A stretch of DNA of 31,788 bases, from assembly GCA_046704705.1 (NCBI GenBank), contig JBJKRK010000296.1, forward strand, positions 1 to 31,788, in the 5' to 3' direction. Positions within the stretch are counted from its first letter, which is position 1; every line of letters starts with the position of its first letter. This document shows, piece after piece, positions 6,276 to 15,194 of this stretch. The notes under the pieces were generated by a model, which saw only the letters and a list, made by a program, of their open reading frames with translations, was not told where the DNA came from and made no database searches. Position numbers and translations under genes: made by a program. The DNA is from Candidatus Limnocylindrales bacterium. GTDB lineage: Bacteria > Chloroflexota > Limnocylindria > Limnocylindrales > CSP1-4.

Positions 6276-6644
6276 TTGGCCAGCAGCACCGGACTCGCCC
6301 AGGACCCCGCGGAGTACCGACGTCGGCTGGCGGATCAGTCCGACGAGCAGATCGATGCATGGGCCGCCGAGCTGATGCGCGATCTCTCGATCCGGATCGG
6401 CGTGCGACGGGTGGTCAGCGATGTGCTCGCCGCGGCGCGCGTCGACGAGGGCCAGTTCGAGCACATCTTCGCGGCCGGAGGTGGTTCCCCGGCGACCGTG
6501 GGTCGCACGGCCGACGGCGAGCTGATGGTCCCGGCGATCGAGCTGTGGTGCATCGTGCGCGGCATCCGGGCGAGGGTGCCGGAACCCCGCGAGCGCCTGA
6601 TCGACTACCTGGTCGGCTGCTTCGCGGAGATGGTCTACCTGTAG
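6276..6644 (+). CDS. Hypothetical protein, 122 aa
   Basis: GAGGAGGA RBS before a TTG start, strongly GC3-biased codons, globular-looking composition; no recognised motif. Confidence 0.75.
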   Translation: MASSTGLAQDPAEYRRRLADQSDEQIDAWAAELMRDLSIRIGVRRVVSDVLAAARVDEGQFEHIFAAGGGSPATVGRTADGELMVPAIELWCIVRGIRARVPEPRERLIDYLVGCFAEMVYL

Positions 6645-6721: not shown

Positions 6722-7822
6722 TCAGCGCCGTCCCGGGTCGGCGCCCTGTCCGGCACGCAGGACGACGATCGCGTTCTCGAGCCGGAGCTTGGCGATCGTG
6801 AGGTACTTGGCCAGGTTCGCGCGGTCCGTCTCGCTCGCCTCATGCATGGCGTTGGACCCGCGCAGGACGTCCACCAGCTCATCGAGCGCCTCGCCGAGTC
6901 GGGTCTTCGCCTGGACCAGCGCGTCGTCGCCCAGCACCCGGGGACCACGCTCGTCGGAATGCCCCGCCAGCAGGCCCATGGAGTCGGGCACGCCGTCGGG
7001 GGAGGCGTCCTCACGCGCCGCTGACGCCTGATCGGCCGCCTCAGCCGCCTCGCCGGCGGCGGTCGGGATCGTGGCGCGGCCGCCGGGACCAGTGGTCATC
7101 TCCGGATCGACCGTGCTGCCGGCCCGCCGACCCTCGATGCGCTGGCGCAGCTTCATCAGGGACAGCTCGCCGCGCGCCACCTGCTCCGCGAGCCGGCGGC
7201 GCTTGCGCGGATCCTCGACCTTCAGCAGCTCGTACGCATGGGAGACCGTGTCTTTGCGCAAAGACACGAGCTCGCGGACCTCCGGCGGCGCGTCCGCCAG
7301 GCGCAGCCGGTTCTCGATGTAGCCCTTGTCCTTGCCGATCTTCTGGGCCAGCTTGCGGATGCTGTAGCCGTGCTCGCGCGTCATCCGGTCGTACATCGAC
7401 GCTTCGTCGAGTGGCGAGAGGTCTTCGCGCTGCAGGTTCTCGATGATCGCGATCTCGAGCGCGGTGTCATCGTCGAGTTCCTCGACGAGCCCCGGCACGG
7501 TCGTCAGGCCGGCGAGCTGTGCGGCGCGCCAGCGCCGCTCCCCGGCCACCAGCTGGAACCGGCCCGCGGCAGCCGGTCGGACCAGAATCGGCTGCAGCAC
7601 CCCGTGCTCGCGCAGCGACGCGGCGAGCTCGTTCAGGCCGACCTCGTCGATCATCAGCCGCGGCTGTTGCGGGTTGGGGTCGATCCGGTCCACCGGGATC
7701 TGGCGGACGCCGGGCAGCTTCTTCTCGCCCTCCCGGCCCAGCAGGCTGAGTACGCCGGTGGGAAGCTCGCGATCTTCGGACAGGCGACGCGCGGCGGCGC
7801 TGCGGAAATCGGGCCTAGCCAA
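6722..7822 (-). CDS. parB: ParB/Spo0J-family CTPase partition protein with divergent HTH and long C-terminal region
   Basis: NPQQPR, GVLQPILVR, arginine patch AGERRWRAA, ENLQREDL, HTH SIRKLAQKIGKDKGYIENRLRL. Overlaps the parA stop. Confidence 0.93.
   Translation of the reverse strand: MARPDFRSAAARRLSEDRELPTGVLSLLGREGEKKLPGVRQIPVDRIDPNPQQPRLMIDEVGLNELAASLREHGVLQPILVRPAAAGRFQLVAGERRWRAAQLAGLTTVPGLVEELDDDTALEIAIIENLQREDLSPLDEASMYDRMTREHGYSIRKLAQKIGKDKGYIENRLRLADAPPEVRELVSLRKDTVSHAYELLKVEDPRKRRRLAEQVARGELSLMKLRQRIEGRRAGSTVDPEMTTGPGGRATIPTAAGEAAEAADQASAAREDASPDGVPDSMGLLAGHSDERGPRVLGDDALVQAKTRLGEALDELVDVLRGSNAMHEASETDRANLAKYLTIAKLRLENAIVVLRAGQGADPGRR
7247..7268. promoter_or_regulatory. Palindrome copy 1 (candidate non-canonical parS), inside the parB CDS
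   Basis: Perfect 22-bp inverted repeat CGTGTCTTTGCGCAAAGACACG; core GTCTTTGCGCAAAGAC at 7250-7265. The sequence is certain; the function is inferred. Confidence 0.7.
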
Positions 7823-8585
7823 GGTCGATCACCTCCCGTGCCAGCTCGCGAAACGAGCGAGCTGCCTCCGACGTCCCGGCGTAGACGGTCACCGGCCGGC
7901 CGGTGAGCGGCGCCTCTCCCAGTTTGACCGTGCTCTTGATGATGCTGTGAAAGACGTGGTGGTCGCCCAGCTCCCGCAGTTCGTCGAGCATCTCGCGACC
8001 CAGCAGGGTGCGGCCGTCGTAGAAGGTGGGCAGCAGGCCGAGGATGCGGAGGTCGCGGTTGAGGCCCTTCGCGCGGATCTGGTTGATGACCTTGACGAGC
8101 GCCGTGAGTCCTTTGAGCGCGTAGTACTGCGTCTGCACCGGGATGATCACGTCGTTCGCCGCGACGAGGCCGTTGATCGTCAGCAGGCCGAGAGTCGGCG
8201 GGCAATCGACCAGGACGTAGTCGTACCGAGGTTCGACCCAGCCCGCGAGGGCTTCGCGCAGTGCGTGCTCTCTGCCGATCGCGGTGAACAGCTCGACTTC
8301 GGTGGACGCCAGCTCGAGGGTCGCAGGGGCCACGTCGATGCCCGTGGTCTGCGTGGGCACCACGACCTCGTCCATCGTCGCGCGCGCGTCGCCGAGCACA
8401 TCGGAGACGGAATGTTGCAGCGTCCCGAGGTTCACACCGAGTCCGACGGTGAGGTTCGCCTGCGGGTCCATGTCCACGCACAAGACCCGGTGGCCCTGCT
8501 CGGCGAGTGCACCGGCCAGATTGATCGCCGTTGTCGTCTTTCCCACGCCGCCTTTCTGGTTGGCGATCGCGATCACGTTCGTCAA
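7815..8585 (-). CDS. parA: ParA/Soj-family partition ATPase
   Basis: Deviant Walker A IANQKGGVGKTTT, VDMDPQAN, DCPPTLG, IIPVQTQYYAL. Likely TTG start at 8585 with AGAGGG upstream. Confidence 0.94.
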   Translation of the reverse strand: MTNVIAIANQKGGVGKTTTAINLAGALAEQGHRVLCVDMDPQANLTVGLGVNLGTLQHSVSDVLGDARATMDEVVVPTQTTGIDVAPATLELASTEVELFTAIGREHALREALAGWVEPRYDYVLVDCPPTLGLLTINGLVAANDVIIPVQTQYYALKGLTALVKVINQIRAKGLNRDLRILGLLPTFYDGRTLLGREMLDELRELGDHHVFHSIIKSTVKLGEAPLTGRPVTVYAGTSEAARSFRELAREVIDLG

Positions 8586-8675
8586 GGCGCGTCCCTCTCT
8601 CTGTCGCTCGTGGGCGGCGATCGTCCCGTGCGCGGCCGGCGATCTGGTGTTGGCGCGGGATGAGCCAGGCAAGGC

Positions 8676-8725
8676 AGTCTACCAGTCCGGTCCGGCAGTC
8701 TACCGCGCGAACAGCGAGCGTCCAA
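8676..8725 (-). promoter_or_regulatory. Tandem sigma-70-type promoters of parAB
   Basis: On the minus strand, TTGGAC (8725-8720), 17 bp, TAGACT (8702-8697). A second extended -10 TGGTAGACT lies at 8684-8676. These explain the 11-bp direct repeat GGCAGTCTACC spaced 21 bp apart. Confidence 0.6.
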
Positions 8726-8730
8726 GGCGC

Positions 8731-8773
8731 TTGTCCACAGCTGACCCGAGTTGTTCACCGAATCTGTGGATAA
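8731..8773. promoter_or_regulatory. DnaA-box cluster upstream of parA
   Basis: TGTGGATAA 8765-8773 (perfect reverse complement of TTATCCACA), TTGTCCACA 8731-8739 (1 mismatch), TTGTTCACC 8751-8759 (degenerate). Confidence 0.7.
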
Positions 8774-8794
8774 GTGACGCCCCGTCCGTCGTTT

Positions 8795-8833
8795 GCTGAC
8801 GGGGACCTGACGGCTGCTGACGGCGACCTGACG
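8795..8833. repeat. Helically phased direct repeats: CTGACG x4, forming two 18-mers GCTGACGG(G/C)GACCTGACG 21 bp apart
   Basis: CTGACG starts at 8796, 8807, 8817 and 8828 (spacing 11/10/11). Confidence 0.8.
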
Positions 8834-8920
8834 ACGTGCCATGCGGGCGGCGTCGACCTGTGCGTTTCTGCCGCGACCCGAAGTCCGCGATGGTCGCCGC
8901 GGGGAGAGGTCATGCGCCGC

Positions 8921-8929
8921 TGGTACGAT
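8921..8929 (+). promoter_or_regulatory. Extended -10 (TGGTACGAT) of the pccB operon
   Basis: TGn plus TACGAT about 47 nt upstream of the pccB ATG. Confidence 0.5.
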
Positions 8930-8937
8930 ACCGGGAC

Positions 8938-8955
8938 CGTCTTTGCGCAAAGACG
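8938..8955. promoter_or_regulatory. Palindrome copy 2 (candidate non-canonical parS or operator)
   Basis: Perfect 18-bp palindrome CGTCTTTGCGCAAAGACG with the same 16-bp core (8939-8954). Confidence 0.7.
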
Positions 8956-8975
8956 CGACCGCAGCAGGGAGCGTG

Positions 8976-10529
8976 ATGGCCACCAACGAGGAACGACTCG
9001 TCCGTCTGCGCGTGATGCGCGAGCAGTCTCGCCTCGGGGGCGGGGAGGCGAGGATCGAGCAGCAGCACGCGCGGGGCAAGCTGACGGCCAGGGAACGGCT
9101 CGACATGTTGCTCGACCCGGGATCGTTCGTCGAGCTCGATGCGTTCGTCACCCACCGGGCTACCGAGTTCGGCCTGGACGAGCAACGCATCCTCGGCGAT
9201 GGCGTCGTCACGGGTCACGGCACGATCGATGGTCGACTCGTGTTCGTCTTCAGTCAGGACTTCACGGTCTTCGGAGGATCCCTGTCTGAGACACATGCGG
9301 AGAAGATCTGCAAGATCATGGACCTGGCGATGCGGACGGGCGCGCCGGTTGTGGGGCTGAACGACTCGGGCGGTGCGCGAATCCAGGAAGGCGTCGTGTC
9401 GCTGGGCGGCTATGCCGACATCTTCCTGCGCAACACCCGCGCCTCGGGCGTCATCCCGCAGATCTCGGTGATCATGGGACCGTGCGCCGGCGGCGCGGTG
9501 TACTCACCGGCGATCACCGACGTCACGATCATGGTGGAGGAGACGAGCTACATGTTCGTCACCGGTCCCGACGTTGTGCGCGCCGTGACTCATGAGGATG
9601 TCGACCGTGAGCGGCTGGGTGGCGCGCGCGTCCACACGAGCGTGAGCGGCGTGGCCCACCTGGCCGCGCCCGATGAAGCGGTCGCGCTCGACCTGGCCCG
9701 CCGCATCCTGGGCCACCTGCCACAGAACAACGTGGACGACCCGCCGCACCGCCCGACGAGTGATCCAGCGGATCGTCGCGACCCCGAGCTCGACCGGCTG
9801 GTCCCGGACGAACCGAATCGCCCGTACGACATGCACGAGGTGGTCGCGCGGGTCGTGGACGACGGCGAGTTCCTCGAACTGCAGCCGGCGTGGGCCATGA
9901 ACATCATCATCGGCTTTGCCCACCTGGGCGGCCGGAGCGTGGGAATCGTGGCACAGCAGCCGGCGGTGCTCGCGGGGGCGCTCGACATCGATGCGTCCGA
10001 CAAGGCGGCGCGGTTCGTGCGCCTGTGCGACGCGTTCAACGTCCCGCTGGTGACGTTCGTCGATGTCCCGGGCTTCCTTCCGGGCGTGTCGCAGGAGCAC
10101 GGTGGGATCATCCGTCACGGGGCGAAGCTGCTCTACGCGTACTGTGAGGCGACGGTCCCCAAACTCACCGTCATCACGCGCAAGGCGTACGGTGGTGCGT
10201 ACGACGTCATGAGCAGCAAACATGTCGGTGGGGACATCAACTTCGCCTGGCCTTCAGCGGAGATCGCCGTGATGGGTGTCGAGGGTGCCGTGAACATCAT
10301 CTTCCGGGACCGCATCGGCTCGGCGCAGGATCCCGACGCGGAACGCCAAGCGCTCGTCGCGGAGTACGAGGAACGCTTCGCGCACCCGTACATCGCCGCG
10401 GCGCGCGGGTACGTGGACGATGTGATCGAGCCGTCGGAGACTCGACCGCGACTGATCCGGGCGCTGGAGATGCTCGCCACGAAACGCGACCGGAACCCGG
10501 CGCGCAAGCACGGCAACATCCCGCTGTGA
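8976..10529 (+). CDS. pccB: Acyl-CoA (propionyl/methylmalonyl-CoA) carboxyltransferase beta subunit
   Basis: [68 protein letters not shown] before ATG 8976. Confidence 0.92.
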
Positions 10530-10534
10530 TGATC

Positions 10535-10550
10535 GTCTTTGCGCAAAGAC
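10535..10550. promoter_or_regulatory. Palindrome copy 3 (candidate non-canonical parS)
   Basis: Perfect GTCTTTGCGCAAAGAC 5 bp after the pccB stop codon. Confidence 0.7.
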
Positions 10551-10656: not shown

Positions 10657-12266
<1,610 letters not shown>

Positions 12267-12270
<4 letters not shown>

Positions 12271-12815
12271 CGCAGCTGCCGGAACAGGCTGGCTCGTCCC
12301 CCGTTCCCCAGGGCGCGGCACCAGCCGTTCCCGACCCCGGAGCACGGAGCACCGCGTTGCGCGTGACGGTGGCGCCGGAGGGTCAGCTGGCCGTCGACCT
12401 CGTGCCGCAGGCCGACCTGCACCGCGCTGCACGGCAGTCGGTGCATGCGCTGCCGCTCTCGGCCGAGGATCGGGCCGCCGGACGGCGGCGCTACGAAGCG
12501 TTCGTCGACGGATGGCGGTTCGAGTTGACCGTCGAGGCGGCCCACCGCGCGGCCCTGCGGGAGCGTGTCCGGCGTGGACTCGATGGCGAGGGCGGGAGCG
12601 GACCCCAGGTCATCCGGGCGCAGATCCCGGGGAGGATCGTGCAGGTCTGGGTGACGGCAGGCGCCGACGTCGAGGCAGGCGCCCACCTCTGTTCCCTGGA
12701 AGCGATGAAGATGGAGAACGAAATCCGGGCCCCGCGAGCGGGTACTATCGCGCGGGTCATGGTCGAGCCCGGCAGCCGGGTGGAACTGGGGGATGAGCTG
12801 GTGGTGATCGAGTGA
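12267..12815 (+). CDS. Biotin carboxyl carrier protein with N-terminal extension
   Basis: C-terminal biotinyl domain with [12 protein letters not shown] overlap with the accC stop. Confidence 0.88.
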
Positions 12816-14623
12816 GTGCCGGAGCGCGCGATGCGCACGCTGCGGTCGCGCGAGGCGAGCGCGGGCCCCTCGCGGGCGGCGACCGCGGTGGCGGCACGGA
12901 CGAGCCTCTGGAGGCTGCCGCCGGCACTGACCGGGAGGGGAGCAGCCCGGGCGCGGCGCATCCACGGGCGATCGATCCGGGTCGCGAGCGCTGGCGGGCA
13001 GGCGTGCGCGCCCACGCGCTTGCGGAGCATCCGGAGCGCCGTCCGCGCTTCGTGACATCCAGCGGGATCGAGATCGCGGACCTCTACACTCCGGCAGACG
13101 TCGCCGGGCTCGACGAAGCCAGGGATCTCGGCAGGCCCGGCGAGTTCCCGTTCACACGCGGCGTCCAGCCCACGATGTACCGCGGCCGGCTCTGGACGAT
13201 GCGCCAGTACGCCGGCTTCGCCAGTGCGGAGCAGACCAACGAGCGGTTCCGCTACCTCCTCGAACAGGGGCAGACGGGGCTCTCCGTCGCCTTCGACCTG
13301 CCGACTCAGATGGGGTACGACCCGGACGCGCCCCAGGCGCGTGGCGAGGTCGGGAGGGTCGGGGTGCCCATCAGCTCGCTCGCCGACATCGAGACACTCT
13401 TCGCCGGAATCCCGCTGGATCGCGTGAGCACGTCGATGACCATCAACTCGACGGCAGCGATCCTGCTCGCCTTCTACATCGCGGCGGCCGAGCGGCAGGG
13501 CCTCCCTCGCGCGGCGCTGAGCGGCACCACGCAGAACGACATCCTCAAGGAATATGTCGCGCGCGGGACGTATATCTACCCTCCAAAACCGTCGCTCAGG
13601 CTCGTGACTGACATATTCGAGTACTGCTCTTCTGAATTGCCCAGATGGAACACGATTTCCATCTCTGGATATCACATGCGTGAAGCGGGCGCCACGGCGG
13701 CGCAGGAACTGGCATTCACCTTCGCCGACGCGATCGCGTATGTCGAGGCAGCCAGGCAGCGCGGGCTGGACGTGGACAGCTTCGCCGGTCGCCTGAGCTT
13801 CTTCTTCGCGGCGTGGGGCGAGCTCTTCGAAGAGGTGGCGAAGTTCCGCGCGGCGCGGCGCATGTGGGCACACATCATGCGCGACCGCTTTGGAGCTCGC
13901 AGCGAGCGTTCGATGCTCTGTCGCTTCCACGTCCAGACTGCGGGAAGCAGCCTCACCGCGCAGTCGGTCGACAACAACGTGGTGCGCACGACAGTGCAGG
14001 CGCTCGCGGCCGTGCTCGGCGGGGCGCAGAGCCTGCACACCAATGCCCGGGACGAGGCGCTCGCGCTCCCCACCGCCGAATCGGCGCGCCTGGCCCTGCG
14101 GACCCAGCAGATCCTGGCGCACGAGACGGGCGTGGCGGACACGCCGGACCCGCTGGCCGGCAGCTACTACGTGGAGCGCCTGACGGCCGACCTCGAGGCG
14201 GCCGCGGAGTCCTATCTCGAGGAGATCGATGCGCTCGGCGGCACGCTCGCCGCGATCGAGGGCGGTTACCAGCAGCGTCAGATCCAGGAGGCAGCCTACC
14301 GCCAGCAGCGCGAGGTCGAGCGGGGGGATCGGATCGTGGTGGGGGTGAACCGCTTCGTGGACGAGCAGGTGTCGTCCCCGACGCTGCAGCGCATCGATCC
14401 TGCGGAAGAGCAGCGTCAGGTCGACCGTGTCCGGCGCGTCCGTGCGGAGCGCGACCCGCTCACCTGGGAGCGCGCCATGGACCGGCTCGCGACCCTGGCG
14501 CGCGGTGGCGGCAATGTCCTTCCGGCGCTCGTGGAGGCGGCCGCCGCGTATGCCACGCTCGGCGAGATGAGCGATGCCCTGCGCGCCGCCTGGGGCGAGC
14601 ATCGCGAGTCGATCACGATCTGA
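12812..14623 (+). CDS. Methylmalonyl-CoA mutase, substrate-binding large subunit (split type, no B12-binding domain)
   Basis: [19 protein letters not shown] (Tyr, as in MCM rather than isobutyryl-CoA mutase), [39 protein letters not shown]. No DxHxxG motif. Start uncertain. Confidence 0.9.
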
Positions 14624-14693
14624 CCGGCAACCCGGCGCGCCGCGCGAAGCGGTGCAGCCCGGAGACGTCGGAGGACAGCTGGGGAGCACGAGG

Positions 14694-15194
14694 ATGTCGG
14701 ATCTCATCGGTACAGCAGGCCCCGGCGGGCCCGCAATGCAGCCCGCCGCGCTCGCGCGTCGCCACCGGCTCGGCCGGGTGCACCACGTCGCGGTGGTCGT
14801 GCGCGATCTGGAGGCCGCGCTCGGCCTCTACCGGGACACGCTCGGGCTGCCGCTCGAGACCGTGCAGGACATCCCCGGGGACGGCGTCCGCATCGCGTTC
14901 CTGCCGCTCGACGACACGAAGCTCGAGCTCGTCGAGCCCACGGATCCCTCGACCGGGGTGGCCCGCTTTCTCGAGAGCCGCGGCGAGGGATTCCACCATG
15001 TGTGCTTCGAGGTGCCGGACCTGGCCGAAACCCTGACACGGCTCGCCATCAACGGCCTCGAGCTCATCGACACGGCGCCGAGGGCAGGCGCCGAGGGACC
15101 GGTGGCGTTCCTTCACCCGCGCAGCTGCCACGGGCTGCTGGTGGAGCTCATCGAGGCGCCCGGCGGCCCGGCCTGGTCCGCCCTCGGCTACTGA
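14694..15194 (+). CDS. mce: Methylmalonyl-CoA epimerase (VOC family)
   Basis: VHHVAVVV, KLELVEP, GEGFHHVCFEV, FLHPRSCHGLLVELIE; adjacent to the mutase. Start 14694 or 14736. Confidence 0.88.
   Translation: MSDLIGTAGPGGPAMQPAALARRHRLGRVHHVAVVVRDLEAALGLYRDTLGLPLETVQDIPGDGVRIAFLPLDDTKLELVEPTDPSTGVARFLESRGEGFHHVCFEVPDLAETLTRLAINGLELIDTAPRAGAEGPVAFLHPRSCHGLLVELIEAPGGPAWSALGY

Follow-up and report, generated by a model that had tools for sequence, protein, structure and literature searches.

A Palindrome Repeated at a parAB Locus

The window analyzed here is the whole 31,788-nucleotide contig JBJKRK010000296.1 (C296) of a metagenome-assembled genome of Candidatus Limnocylindrales bacterium (Chloroflexota, class Limnocylindria; GCA_046704705.1). 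It carries a pair of partition genes, parA2 and parB2, together with three copies of a palindrome that probably forms their centromere. The gene parB2 (6722..7822, minus strand) encodes a ParB-family CTPase with the Pfam domains ParB_N (E = 9e-34) and HTH_ParB (E = 7e-20), and parA2 (7815..8586, minus strand) encodes a ParA/Soj-type ATPase matching AAA_31 (E = 1e-58), CbiA, and ParA. The parA2 stop overlaps the parB2 start, and we infer translation of parA2 from a TTG at 8586, in an open reading frame (ORF) extending to 8672. Divergently oriented to both is pccB (8976..10529, plus strand; Pfam Carboxyl_trans, E = 2e-205), encoding the carboxyltransferase of propionyl-CoA carboxylase.

The 16-bp palindrome GTCTTTGCGCAAAGAC is present in the window in three exact copies. 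Site 1 (7250..7265) lies inside parB2, where it covers codons V186 to D191 (V-S-L-R-K-D) directly after the recognition helix; site 2 (8939..8954) is found in the divergent parA2/pccB intergenic region, 22 bp 5' of the pccB ATG; and site 3 (10535..10550) lies between pccB and the biotin carboxylase gene, 5 bp past the pccB stop. Palindromy extends to 22 bp at site 1 (7247-7268) and to 18 bp at site 2 (8938-8955), and covers 16 bp at site 3. These copies and extensions had been read from the contig by eye in the original prediction, which took chance to be an unlikely source and saw no further copy in the window, and our searches agree on each count. With up to three mismatches permitted, none of 100 dinucleotide shuffles of the window returned three matches, and with up to two mismatches no match beyond the window's three was found in the entire assembly (390 contigs, 2.95 Mb, 71% guanine + cytosine (GC), 77% complete). 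GTCTTTGCGCAAAGAC is also the sole perfect 16-bp palindrome with three copies assembly-wide. Its half-site differs from that of canonical parS, TGTTNCACGTGAAACA, at five of eight positions. A matrix of 87 sites reads Y-GTC[T/c][T/g]TGCGCA[A/c][A/g]GAC-R with invariant outer GTC/GAC, giving the consensus Y-GTCTTTGCGCAAAGAC-R, referred to as parS2 below.

Inverted repeats may also act at the RNA level, and the palindromes could be hairpins with a role as terminator or processing site. Site 3 follows a stop codon, and the extended site 1 folds as RNA with −15.8 kcal/mol (z = −3.5). However, site 3 has a z-score of +0.8 relative to shuffles and is not followed by a U-tract, variants alter one arm without compensation in the other, the sites lie on differently oriented transcripts, and no Rfam match was obtained, which leaves an RNA function scarcely conceivable.

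A Canonical ParABS System in the Same Genome

A family search revealed a second ParB in the genome, encoded on contig C231. This protein, ParB1, comprises about 290 amino acids, carries the motifs GERRLRA and GRSRPSITNTLRLL...EGHARA, and is encoded between ParA1 (before) and gyrB (after). The window is devoid of canonical parS, as previously noted from its sequence; the canonical core GTTTCACGTGAAAC is present on C231 instead, 1.3 kb upstream of ParB1 and in a single copy assembly-wide. Exactly one such site (parS1) stands beside ParB1 in five of five genomes checked, which represent three families. ParA1, ParB1, and parS1 are a complete, separate canonical system at the origin, and ParA2/ParB2 is a paralogous second system.

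ParB2 and ParB1 share 39% identity. Other Chloroflexota classes possess a single ParB, with which ParB1 shares 44–58% identity. A maximum-likelihood tree unites the ParB2 sequences in one clade (100/100) set off by a very long branch, and the Limnocylindria ParB1 proteins are nested among canonical ParBs. ParB2 is not sister to Limnocylindria ParB1 in this tree, which was computed without an outgroup and fits either an accelerated ancient duplication or a foreign acquisition as the origin of ParB2.

Distribution of Motif and Locus in the Class

For comparison, we refer to the window's family as f1, to its sister family (one genus with genomes of about 1.1 Mb) as f2, and to a family from a different order of the class as f3. 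A ParB2 ortholog was identified in 60 of 61 relatives, always besides a ParB1-type protein. The motif (up to two mismatches) occurs two to five times per genome in 35 of 36 family genomes; nearly all of these copies are located on the ParB2 contig at a spacing of 1.5–1.7 kb, and a reversed-pattern control gave about zero. Allowing one mismatch, it was found in 15 of 15 f1 and 13 of 15 f3 genomes, compared to seven single, chance-like hits in about 268 other Chloroflexota genomes. The C-terminal domain of ParB2 is similarly confined, with 20 of 20 genomes inside the class and 0 of 180 outside. In the genome and its f1 and f3 relatives, the 16-mer clusters at parAB2 and co-occurs with a ParB2 whose helix-turn-helix (HTH) is altered, a check that the original prediction had suggested.

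Loci were surveyed in f1 and f3 (31 loci) and, when f2 was included, at 43 loci. One layout is common to the two orders: parB2 with site 1, parA2, DnaA boxes, site 2, pccB, and site 3. It is retained despite a protein identity of only about 50%. Site 1 and site 2 are each present in 28 of the 31 f1 and f3 loci, site 3 in all 28 loci that bear pccB, and parA2 adjoins parB2 at every one of the f1 and f3 loci. Within the intergenic alignment, site 2 stands out as a conservation island.

Two further observations concern this locus. Within the family, ParA2 identity amounts to 41–58% and that of ParB2 to 54–66% (tblastn high-scoring segment pairs), so that ParA2 diverges faster, the reverse of the usual pattern in which ParB is the faster-evolving partner. 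Phased CTGACG repeats at 8796-8833 align to gaps in all 18 family relatives and look specific to the window's genome and outside the conserved system.

Three genomes (G003, G007, and G013) lack pccB, with a positive control giving the expected result, and retain sites 1 and 2; site 2 here heads the methylmalonyl-CoA mutase gene of the same operon. An operator serving pccB only was ruled out on these grounds; one serving the whole operon is compatible with them. The same genomes bear on a control of propionyl-CoA carboxylase by an unlinked transcription factor, of which the palindrome would be the operator and which would account for its position at the pccB promoter and at the junction of pccB with the following gene, pccA. 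We consider this explanation very improbable: the motif persists in the pccB-less genomes and occurs nowhere else in the genome, parB2 is the only conserved transcription-factor-like gene in the cluster, and one copy lies inside parB2 under selection at the codon level, as described next.

Codon Usage at the Site Inside parB2

Three of the codons forming site 1 are rare in the window's genome: TCT, TTG, and AAA account for 2.3%, 3.4%, and 7.1%, respectively, of the codons in their families, and the joint chance of this combination given the peptide is 6e-5. Across 311 ParB2 columns of 31 orthologs, the frequency of A or T in the third position averages 0.12 and is highest at K190 (0.71) and S187 (0.48; both ParB2 numbering), the two columns in which the palindrome has its AAA and TCT codons. 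Loci without site 1, i.e., those of f2 and one f1 outlier, encode V-A-E-R-S-D in place of V-S-L-R-K-D. The maintenance of rare codons indicates that site 1 is held in place by ongoing selection on the DNA sequence.

Features of the ParB2 Protein

ParB2 contains the motifs GERRWRA and ENLQRED. GERRWRA is invariant in 43 of 43 orthologs, and the CTP (cytidine triphosphate)-binding boxes are intact in every ortholog. The best matches in the PDB are Noc, Caulobacter ParB, and Spo0J (E = 1e-40 to 1e-45), and the NCBIfam Noc model scored 189 bits relative to a cut-off of 315. An N-terminal peptide, A-R/K-P-D-F-R-A-A-A-x-R-R-L, is conserved in ParB2; in known ParBs, the N-terminal peptide is the region that contacts ParA.

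No gaps were needed to align the HTH of ParB2 with B. subtilis Spo0J, Noc, and Myxococcus ParB in HMMER. In ParB and Noc, residues S172, N178, and R204 are conserved DNA contacts, and specificity resides in positions 173, 179, 184, and 201, with R173 invariant among parS-specific variants and Q-K-K-R found in Noc (PMC7383237). ParB2 has D172, K173, R179, D184, S201, and Y204 (Caulobacter numbering). It departs from the canonical pattern of R173 with a small residue at 201 by K173 and S201, and additionally by D172 and Y204; its DNA-reading residues are K-R-D-S, compared to R-x-x-G in parS-binding ParBs. Because the HTH residues differ at positions 172, 173, 179, 184, 201, and 204 while the CTPase motifs are kept, an altered DNA specificity of ParB2 is suggested.

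The AlphaFold2 model of ParB2 comprises a confident N-terminal domain and HTH (HTH with a predicted local distance difference test score (pLDDT) above 90), a linker that is disordered (238-293), and, at 299-358 (pLDDT about 90), a helical hairpin that replaces the usual C-terminal domain. No Pfam match was obtained for residues 240-366.

Chromosomal Position and DnaA Boxes

ParB1 is located 21–40 kb from dnaA in the relatives. In G026 and G020, both assembled as single contigs, this distance is 28–40 kb, and ParB2 lies about 40% of the chromosome away. To mark the terminus, we used a motif modelled on dif sites of other phyla, CTTCCGATAA-N6-TTATGT (f3 variant CTTCCGCAAA-N6-TTATGT). It was found in one copy per genome in nine genomes: at G026:C1:2281823 (locus L110), at G306:C1:2179438 (locus L111), and in seven further genomes. 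In five genomes, the distance of the dif-like site from dnaA amounts to 45–49% of the genome; in G026, the site is 26 kb off the exact antipode. Distances between the ParB2 locus and this site are 298, 303, 362, 410, and 355 kb in f1 and 223, 242, 236, and 218 kb in f3; in all nine genomes they correspond to 9.5–12.7% of the genome length, placing the locus 77–81% down one replichore. A clustering near oriC, which the original prediction had suggested to check along with clustering near parAB, was not observed; this mapping places the motif near the terminus. GC skew, sampled in 20 segments of 20 kb in the closed genome G026, gave a weak signal dominated by gene orientation and did not locate origin or terminus.

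Three DnaA boxes are located upstream of parA2 (8731-8739, TTGTCCACA; 8751-8759, TTGTTCACC; 8765-8773, TGTGGATAA). The trio is conserved in 18 of 19 f1 loci, and f3 has one perfect box about 18 bp from site 2. DnaA boxes are rare genome-wide, with 66 at up to one mismatch (0.022 per kb), and the sole TTWTCCACA in the 3.1 Mb of G026 is the box at the parA2 locus. The dnaA-adjacent origin carries a three-box cluster of its own. This arrangement suggests either that control of parA2B2 is coupled to DnaA or that DnaA binds here at a distance from oriC.

A parS-like site accompanied by DnaA boxes ahead of parAB is also reported for secondary replicons of Deinococcus (PMC7671480), and together with the very long branch that parts the ParB2 clade from canonical Chloroflexota ParBs this could point to an ancient secondary replicon, comprising a DnaA-box origin and par genes, that fused into the chromosome and left the sites as inert remnants. 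Inert remnants are hard to reconcile with the conservation of sites, ParA2, ParB2 motifs, and DnaA boxes over two orders, with the rare codons of site 1 as a sign of ongoing selection, or with a neighborhood in which core metabolic and division genes were found and no replication-initiator or mobile-element genes. We therefore regard a fossil locus as quite improbable; a system that functions today could nonetheless have arisen by an ancient fusion.

Regarding DnaA itself, the window's assembly contains two strong DnaA-domain matches (C218, 2151-2633, E = 1e-74; C200, 3015-3497, E = 3e-71), compared to one in each closed relative. The second match could reflect a duplication, strain heterogeneity, or contamination (estimate 2%).

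Neighboring Genes

The gene pccB is the first of a pccB-pccA-mcm-epimerase operon for the conversion of propionyl-CoA to succinyl-CoA, all on the plus strand: pccA, encoding biotin carboxylase and biotin carboxyl carrier protein (10657-12815), the methylmalonyl-CoA mutase gene mcm (12812-14623), and an epimerase gene (14574-15194). This operon divergently adjoins parB2-parA2 in three families, even where pccBA is deleted. Farther along the window follow sucCD, sdh genes, and the dcw cluster. On the other side, an ORF of 122 amino acids (ORF122; 6276..6644, plus strand) is convergent with parB2 and adjoins it in 43 of 43 loci of f1, f2, and f3. Its AlphaFold2 model reached a pLDDT of 91.5, and searches of Pfam, Atlas, PDB, and AFDB folds returned no match except for its own ortholog. 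ORF122 is a possible accessory component of the ParAB2 system; considered as an alternative DNA binder, it is neither favored nor disfavored by these searches.

The position of sites 2 and 3 on either side of pccB leads to a further explanation, namely that ParB2 binds the palindromes solely as a CTP-dependent regulator of parA2B2 and the propionate operon, comparable to KorB or VirB and without a role in segregation. A consensus scan found neither a sigma-70 promoter nor a terminator at the three sites; a −10-like TATGAT is located just upstream of site 2, which gives this site a promoter-like position ahead of the pccB start. Site 3 is located at the pccB/pccA junction, extra sites occur along the operon in some genomes, and the adjacency of parAB2 and operon is conserved in f1, f2, and f3. 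Regulators are known among ParB-family CTPases, and KorB is one of the PDB matches of ParB2, although this kinship is remote (E = 2e-14). On the other hand, a site made of rare codons inside parB2 would be superfluous for a promoter operator, and a full ParA partner is conserved along with the ParA-contact peptide. Loss of parA2 in f2 provides a further argument.

Loss of Sites Together with parA2 in the Reduced-Genome Family

The motif itself was not found near ParB2 in f2. A scan with the position weight matrix revealed diverged remnants about 112–130 bp upstream of parA2 in the seven f2 loci with parA2, represented by a GTCTTTG half-site, GTCTGCGCGCACGGAC, and GTCCGTG. In the five f2 loci without parA2, the site is absent and the N-terminal peptide of ParB2 is replaced, and both ParB2 and the mutase operon are retained. 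Since these loci keep the operon and have no site, retention of the site tracks parA2 and not the operon, which speaks against ParB2 as a mere regulator of metabolic genes and, with the points given above, makes that explanation unlikely.

The five loci without parA2 (L055, L056, L060, L064, and L065; genus g38) belong to genomes of 1.1 Mb, and their ParB2 proteins have intact CTP-binding and HTH motifs. The orphan ParB2 is either decaying or ParA-independent in its role. A de novo search revealed no other recurrent palindrome near ParB2 in f2, and the hits with two mismatches elsewhere in f2 fall in an aminoacyl-tRNA synthetase gene and in an unrelated spacer.

Discussion

We propose that the class Limnocylindria has a second, orthogonal ParABS system, the terminus-proximal ParA2/ParB2, with the palindrome as its likely cognate parS (parS2). 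This proposal is based on the exclusive occurrence of the motif at the locus, its phyletic pattern, the shared layout, codon-level selection on site 1, the ParB2 residues, the joint loss with parA2, and the chromosomal position; on such comparative evidence, a parS function of the palindrome is well supported. The locus shows several traits of ParABS systems with a ParB CTPase, namely a ParB with a CTP-binding domain and an HTH, an adjacent ParA, and palindromic sites that cluster at parAB and are rare elsewhere. The original prediction had postulated a ParABS system with a rewired recognition code. This holds insofar as the palindrome behaves as the cognate parS of the adjacent ParAB, being locus-confined and conserved with the locus, with a rare-codon copy in parB and all ParB specificity residues changed. 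It does not hold insofar as this is not the only ParABS of the organism, which has retained canonical ParA1/ParB1/parS1 at the origin.

In the mechanism we envisage by analogy with characterized ParB CTPases, ParB2 dimers would recognize the three sites through the HTH with its changed specificity residues. ParB2 would then close as a CTP clamp and slide over the cluster of about 3.3 kb, including its own genes, to form a partition complex, which ParA2 would position or segregate via contact with the N-terminal peptide of ParB2. Given that the locus is located about 10% of the chromosome from the dif-like site, it is the terminus-proximal region, and not the origin, that would serve as cargo. 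Many plasmid par centromeres also act as operators. Site 2 probably doubles as an operator between the divergent promoters of parA2 and the propionate operon, beside the DnaA boxes, and an operator role like that of KorB may coexist with a centromere role.

Several points weigh against a second partition system. Sites 2 and 3 bracket pccB exactly, and site 2 always heads the propionate-pathway operon, even with pccB deleted, so that an operator role of site 2 is inseparable from a centromere role. By the refuting condition of the original prediction, the absence of the motif from metabolic genes genome-wide favors parS, but two of the three sites do border pccB. The C-terminal domain in the AlphaFold2 model of ParB2 differs from the dimerization domain of canonical ParB. 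The joint loss in f2 probably happened only once, in one genus, and counts as one observation, and the recognition helix of f2 ParB2 is unchanged though the sites are degenerate or gone. Finally, the dif-like assignment builds on a motif taken from other phyla and its single-copy antipodal placement, with no support from GC skew.

Compared to canonical ParABS, the system has the same components, including the ParB_N CTPase, a ParB/Noc-type HTH, an adjacent Soj-like ParA, and a palindromic, CG-centered 16-mer with copies in or near parB. It differs in the exchange of R173 for K and of G201 for S, in the C-terminal domain, and in its location on the terminus side. Noc is a ParB paralog that reads a changed 16-bp palindrome by means of substitutions at positions 173, 179, 184, and 201 (PMC7383237). 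Like Noc with its binding sites in Firmicutes, ParB2 is a chromosomal ParB paralog coexisting with ParB; unlike Noc, it has K-R-D-S instead of Q-K-K-R, its own ParA, and two to five sites at one locus. The sites of Noc are many and spread over the chromosome, and Noc is not known to have a dedicated ParA. In the KorB/IncC system of plasmid RK2, a ParB-family CTPase with a ParA partner binds palindromic sites that are operators and centromere. ParB2 differs from this plasmid protein with its many operators, and its match to KorB is restricted to the N-terminal domain.

Further parallels come from replicons other than a main chromosome. The Streptomyces coelicolor linear plasmid SCP1 has dual ParABS systems. 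In both, the ParB recognizes a set of three identical, non-canonical inverted repeats that cluster around the parAB operon of its system, and one repeat lies within the parB gene. Experimentally validated, these systems depend on CTP and show strict orthogonality to the chromosomal ParB of the same host (bioRxiv 10.64898/2025.12.10.693275). ParAB2 is likewise surrounded by three identical sites, of which one lies in parB2. In contrast to SCP1, a plasmid with sites of 13 and 19 bp and demonstrated binding, parS2 is chromosomal, terminus-proximal, and vertically inherited across the class, with binding predicted. The Bsr parS of secondary chromosomes and plasmids in Burkholderiales is a perfect palindrome of 16 bp; its 5' arm is T-rich, and its 6-bp core consists of two C, two G, one A, and one T with a central CG. 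It is orthogonal to the canonical parS carried by the main chromosome of that cell (PMC5450999). The core TGCGCA of parS2 (GTCTT-TGCGCA-AAGAC) agrees with this description in site geometry. Bsr systems are found on separate replicons near their own origins, whereas ParAB1 and ParAB2 reside on one chromosome.

The ParABS kind itself is known; what is new in our comparative data is a second, orthogonal system that resides on the chromosome, close to the terminus, throughout a class. The literature searched yielded neither a description, for any bacterium, of a native second ParABS on the terminus side of a single chromosome nor a publication on ParB in Limnocylindria. More tentatively, and with considerable doubt, the chromosomes might be called 'dicentric', in that the orthogonal ParABS would actively position or segregate the terminus-proximal domain, with the DnaA boxes linking it to the replication cycle and ORF122 possibly assisting.

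ParABS is regarded as a device for origin segregation, and parS codes that differ have been described chiefly for separate replicons that have to be kept apart. Against this background, Limnocylindria, a class of abundant, uncultured soil and freshwater bacteria, would have two orthogonal systems on one chromosome, the second at a conserved terminus-proximal position across the class. The data also correct a misreading that is tempting from the parAB2 locus alone, namely that the class replaced the universal parS, and they provide a dif-like site that can be used as terminus marker for Limnocylindria, where GC skew is uninformative. If ParB2 binds parS2, it would add to the chromosomal ParB/Noc lineage a third specificity of natural origin, with K-R-D-S reading GTCTTTGC, useful for studying the evolution of DNA recognition, and would offer a ready orthogonal ParB/parS pair for the labelling of DNA loci. 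For the biology of these bacteria, it would be a test case for active partition of the terminus and its coupling to DnaA.

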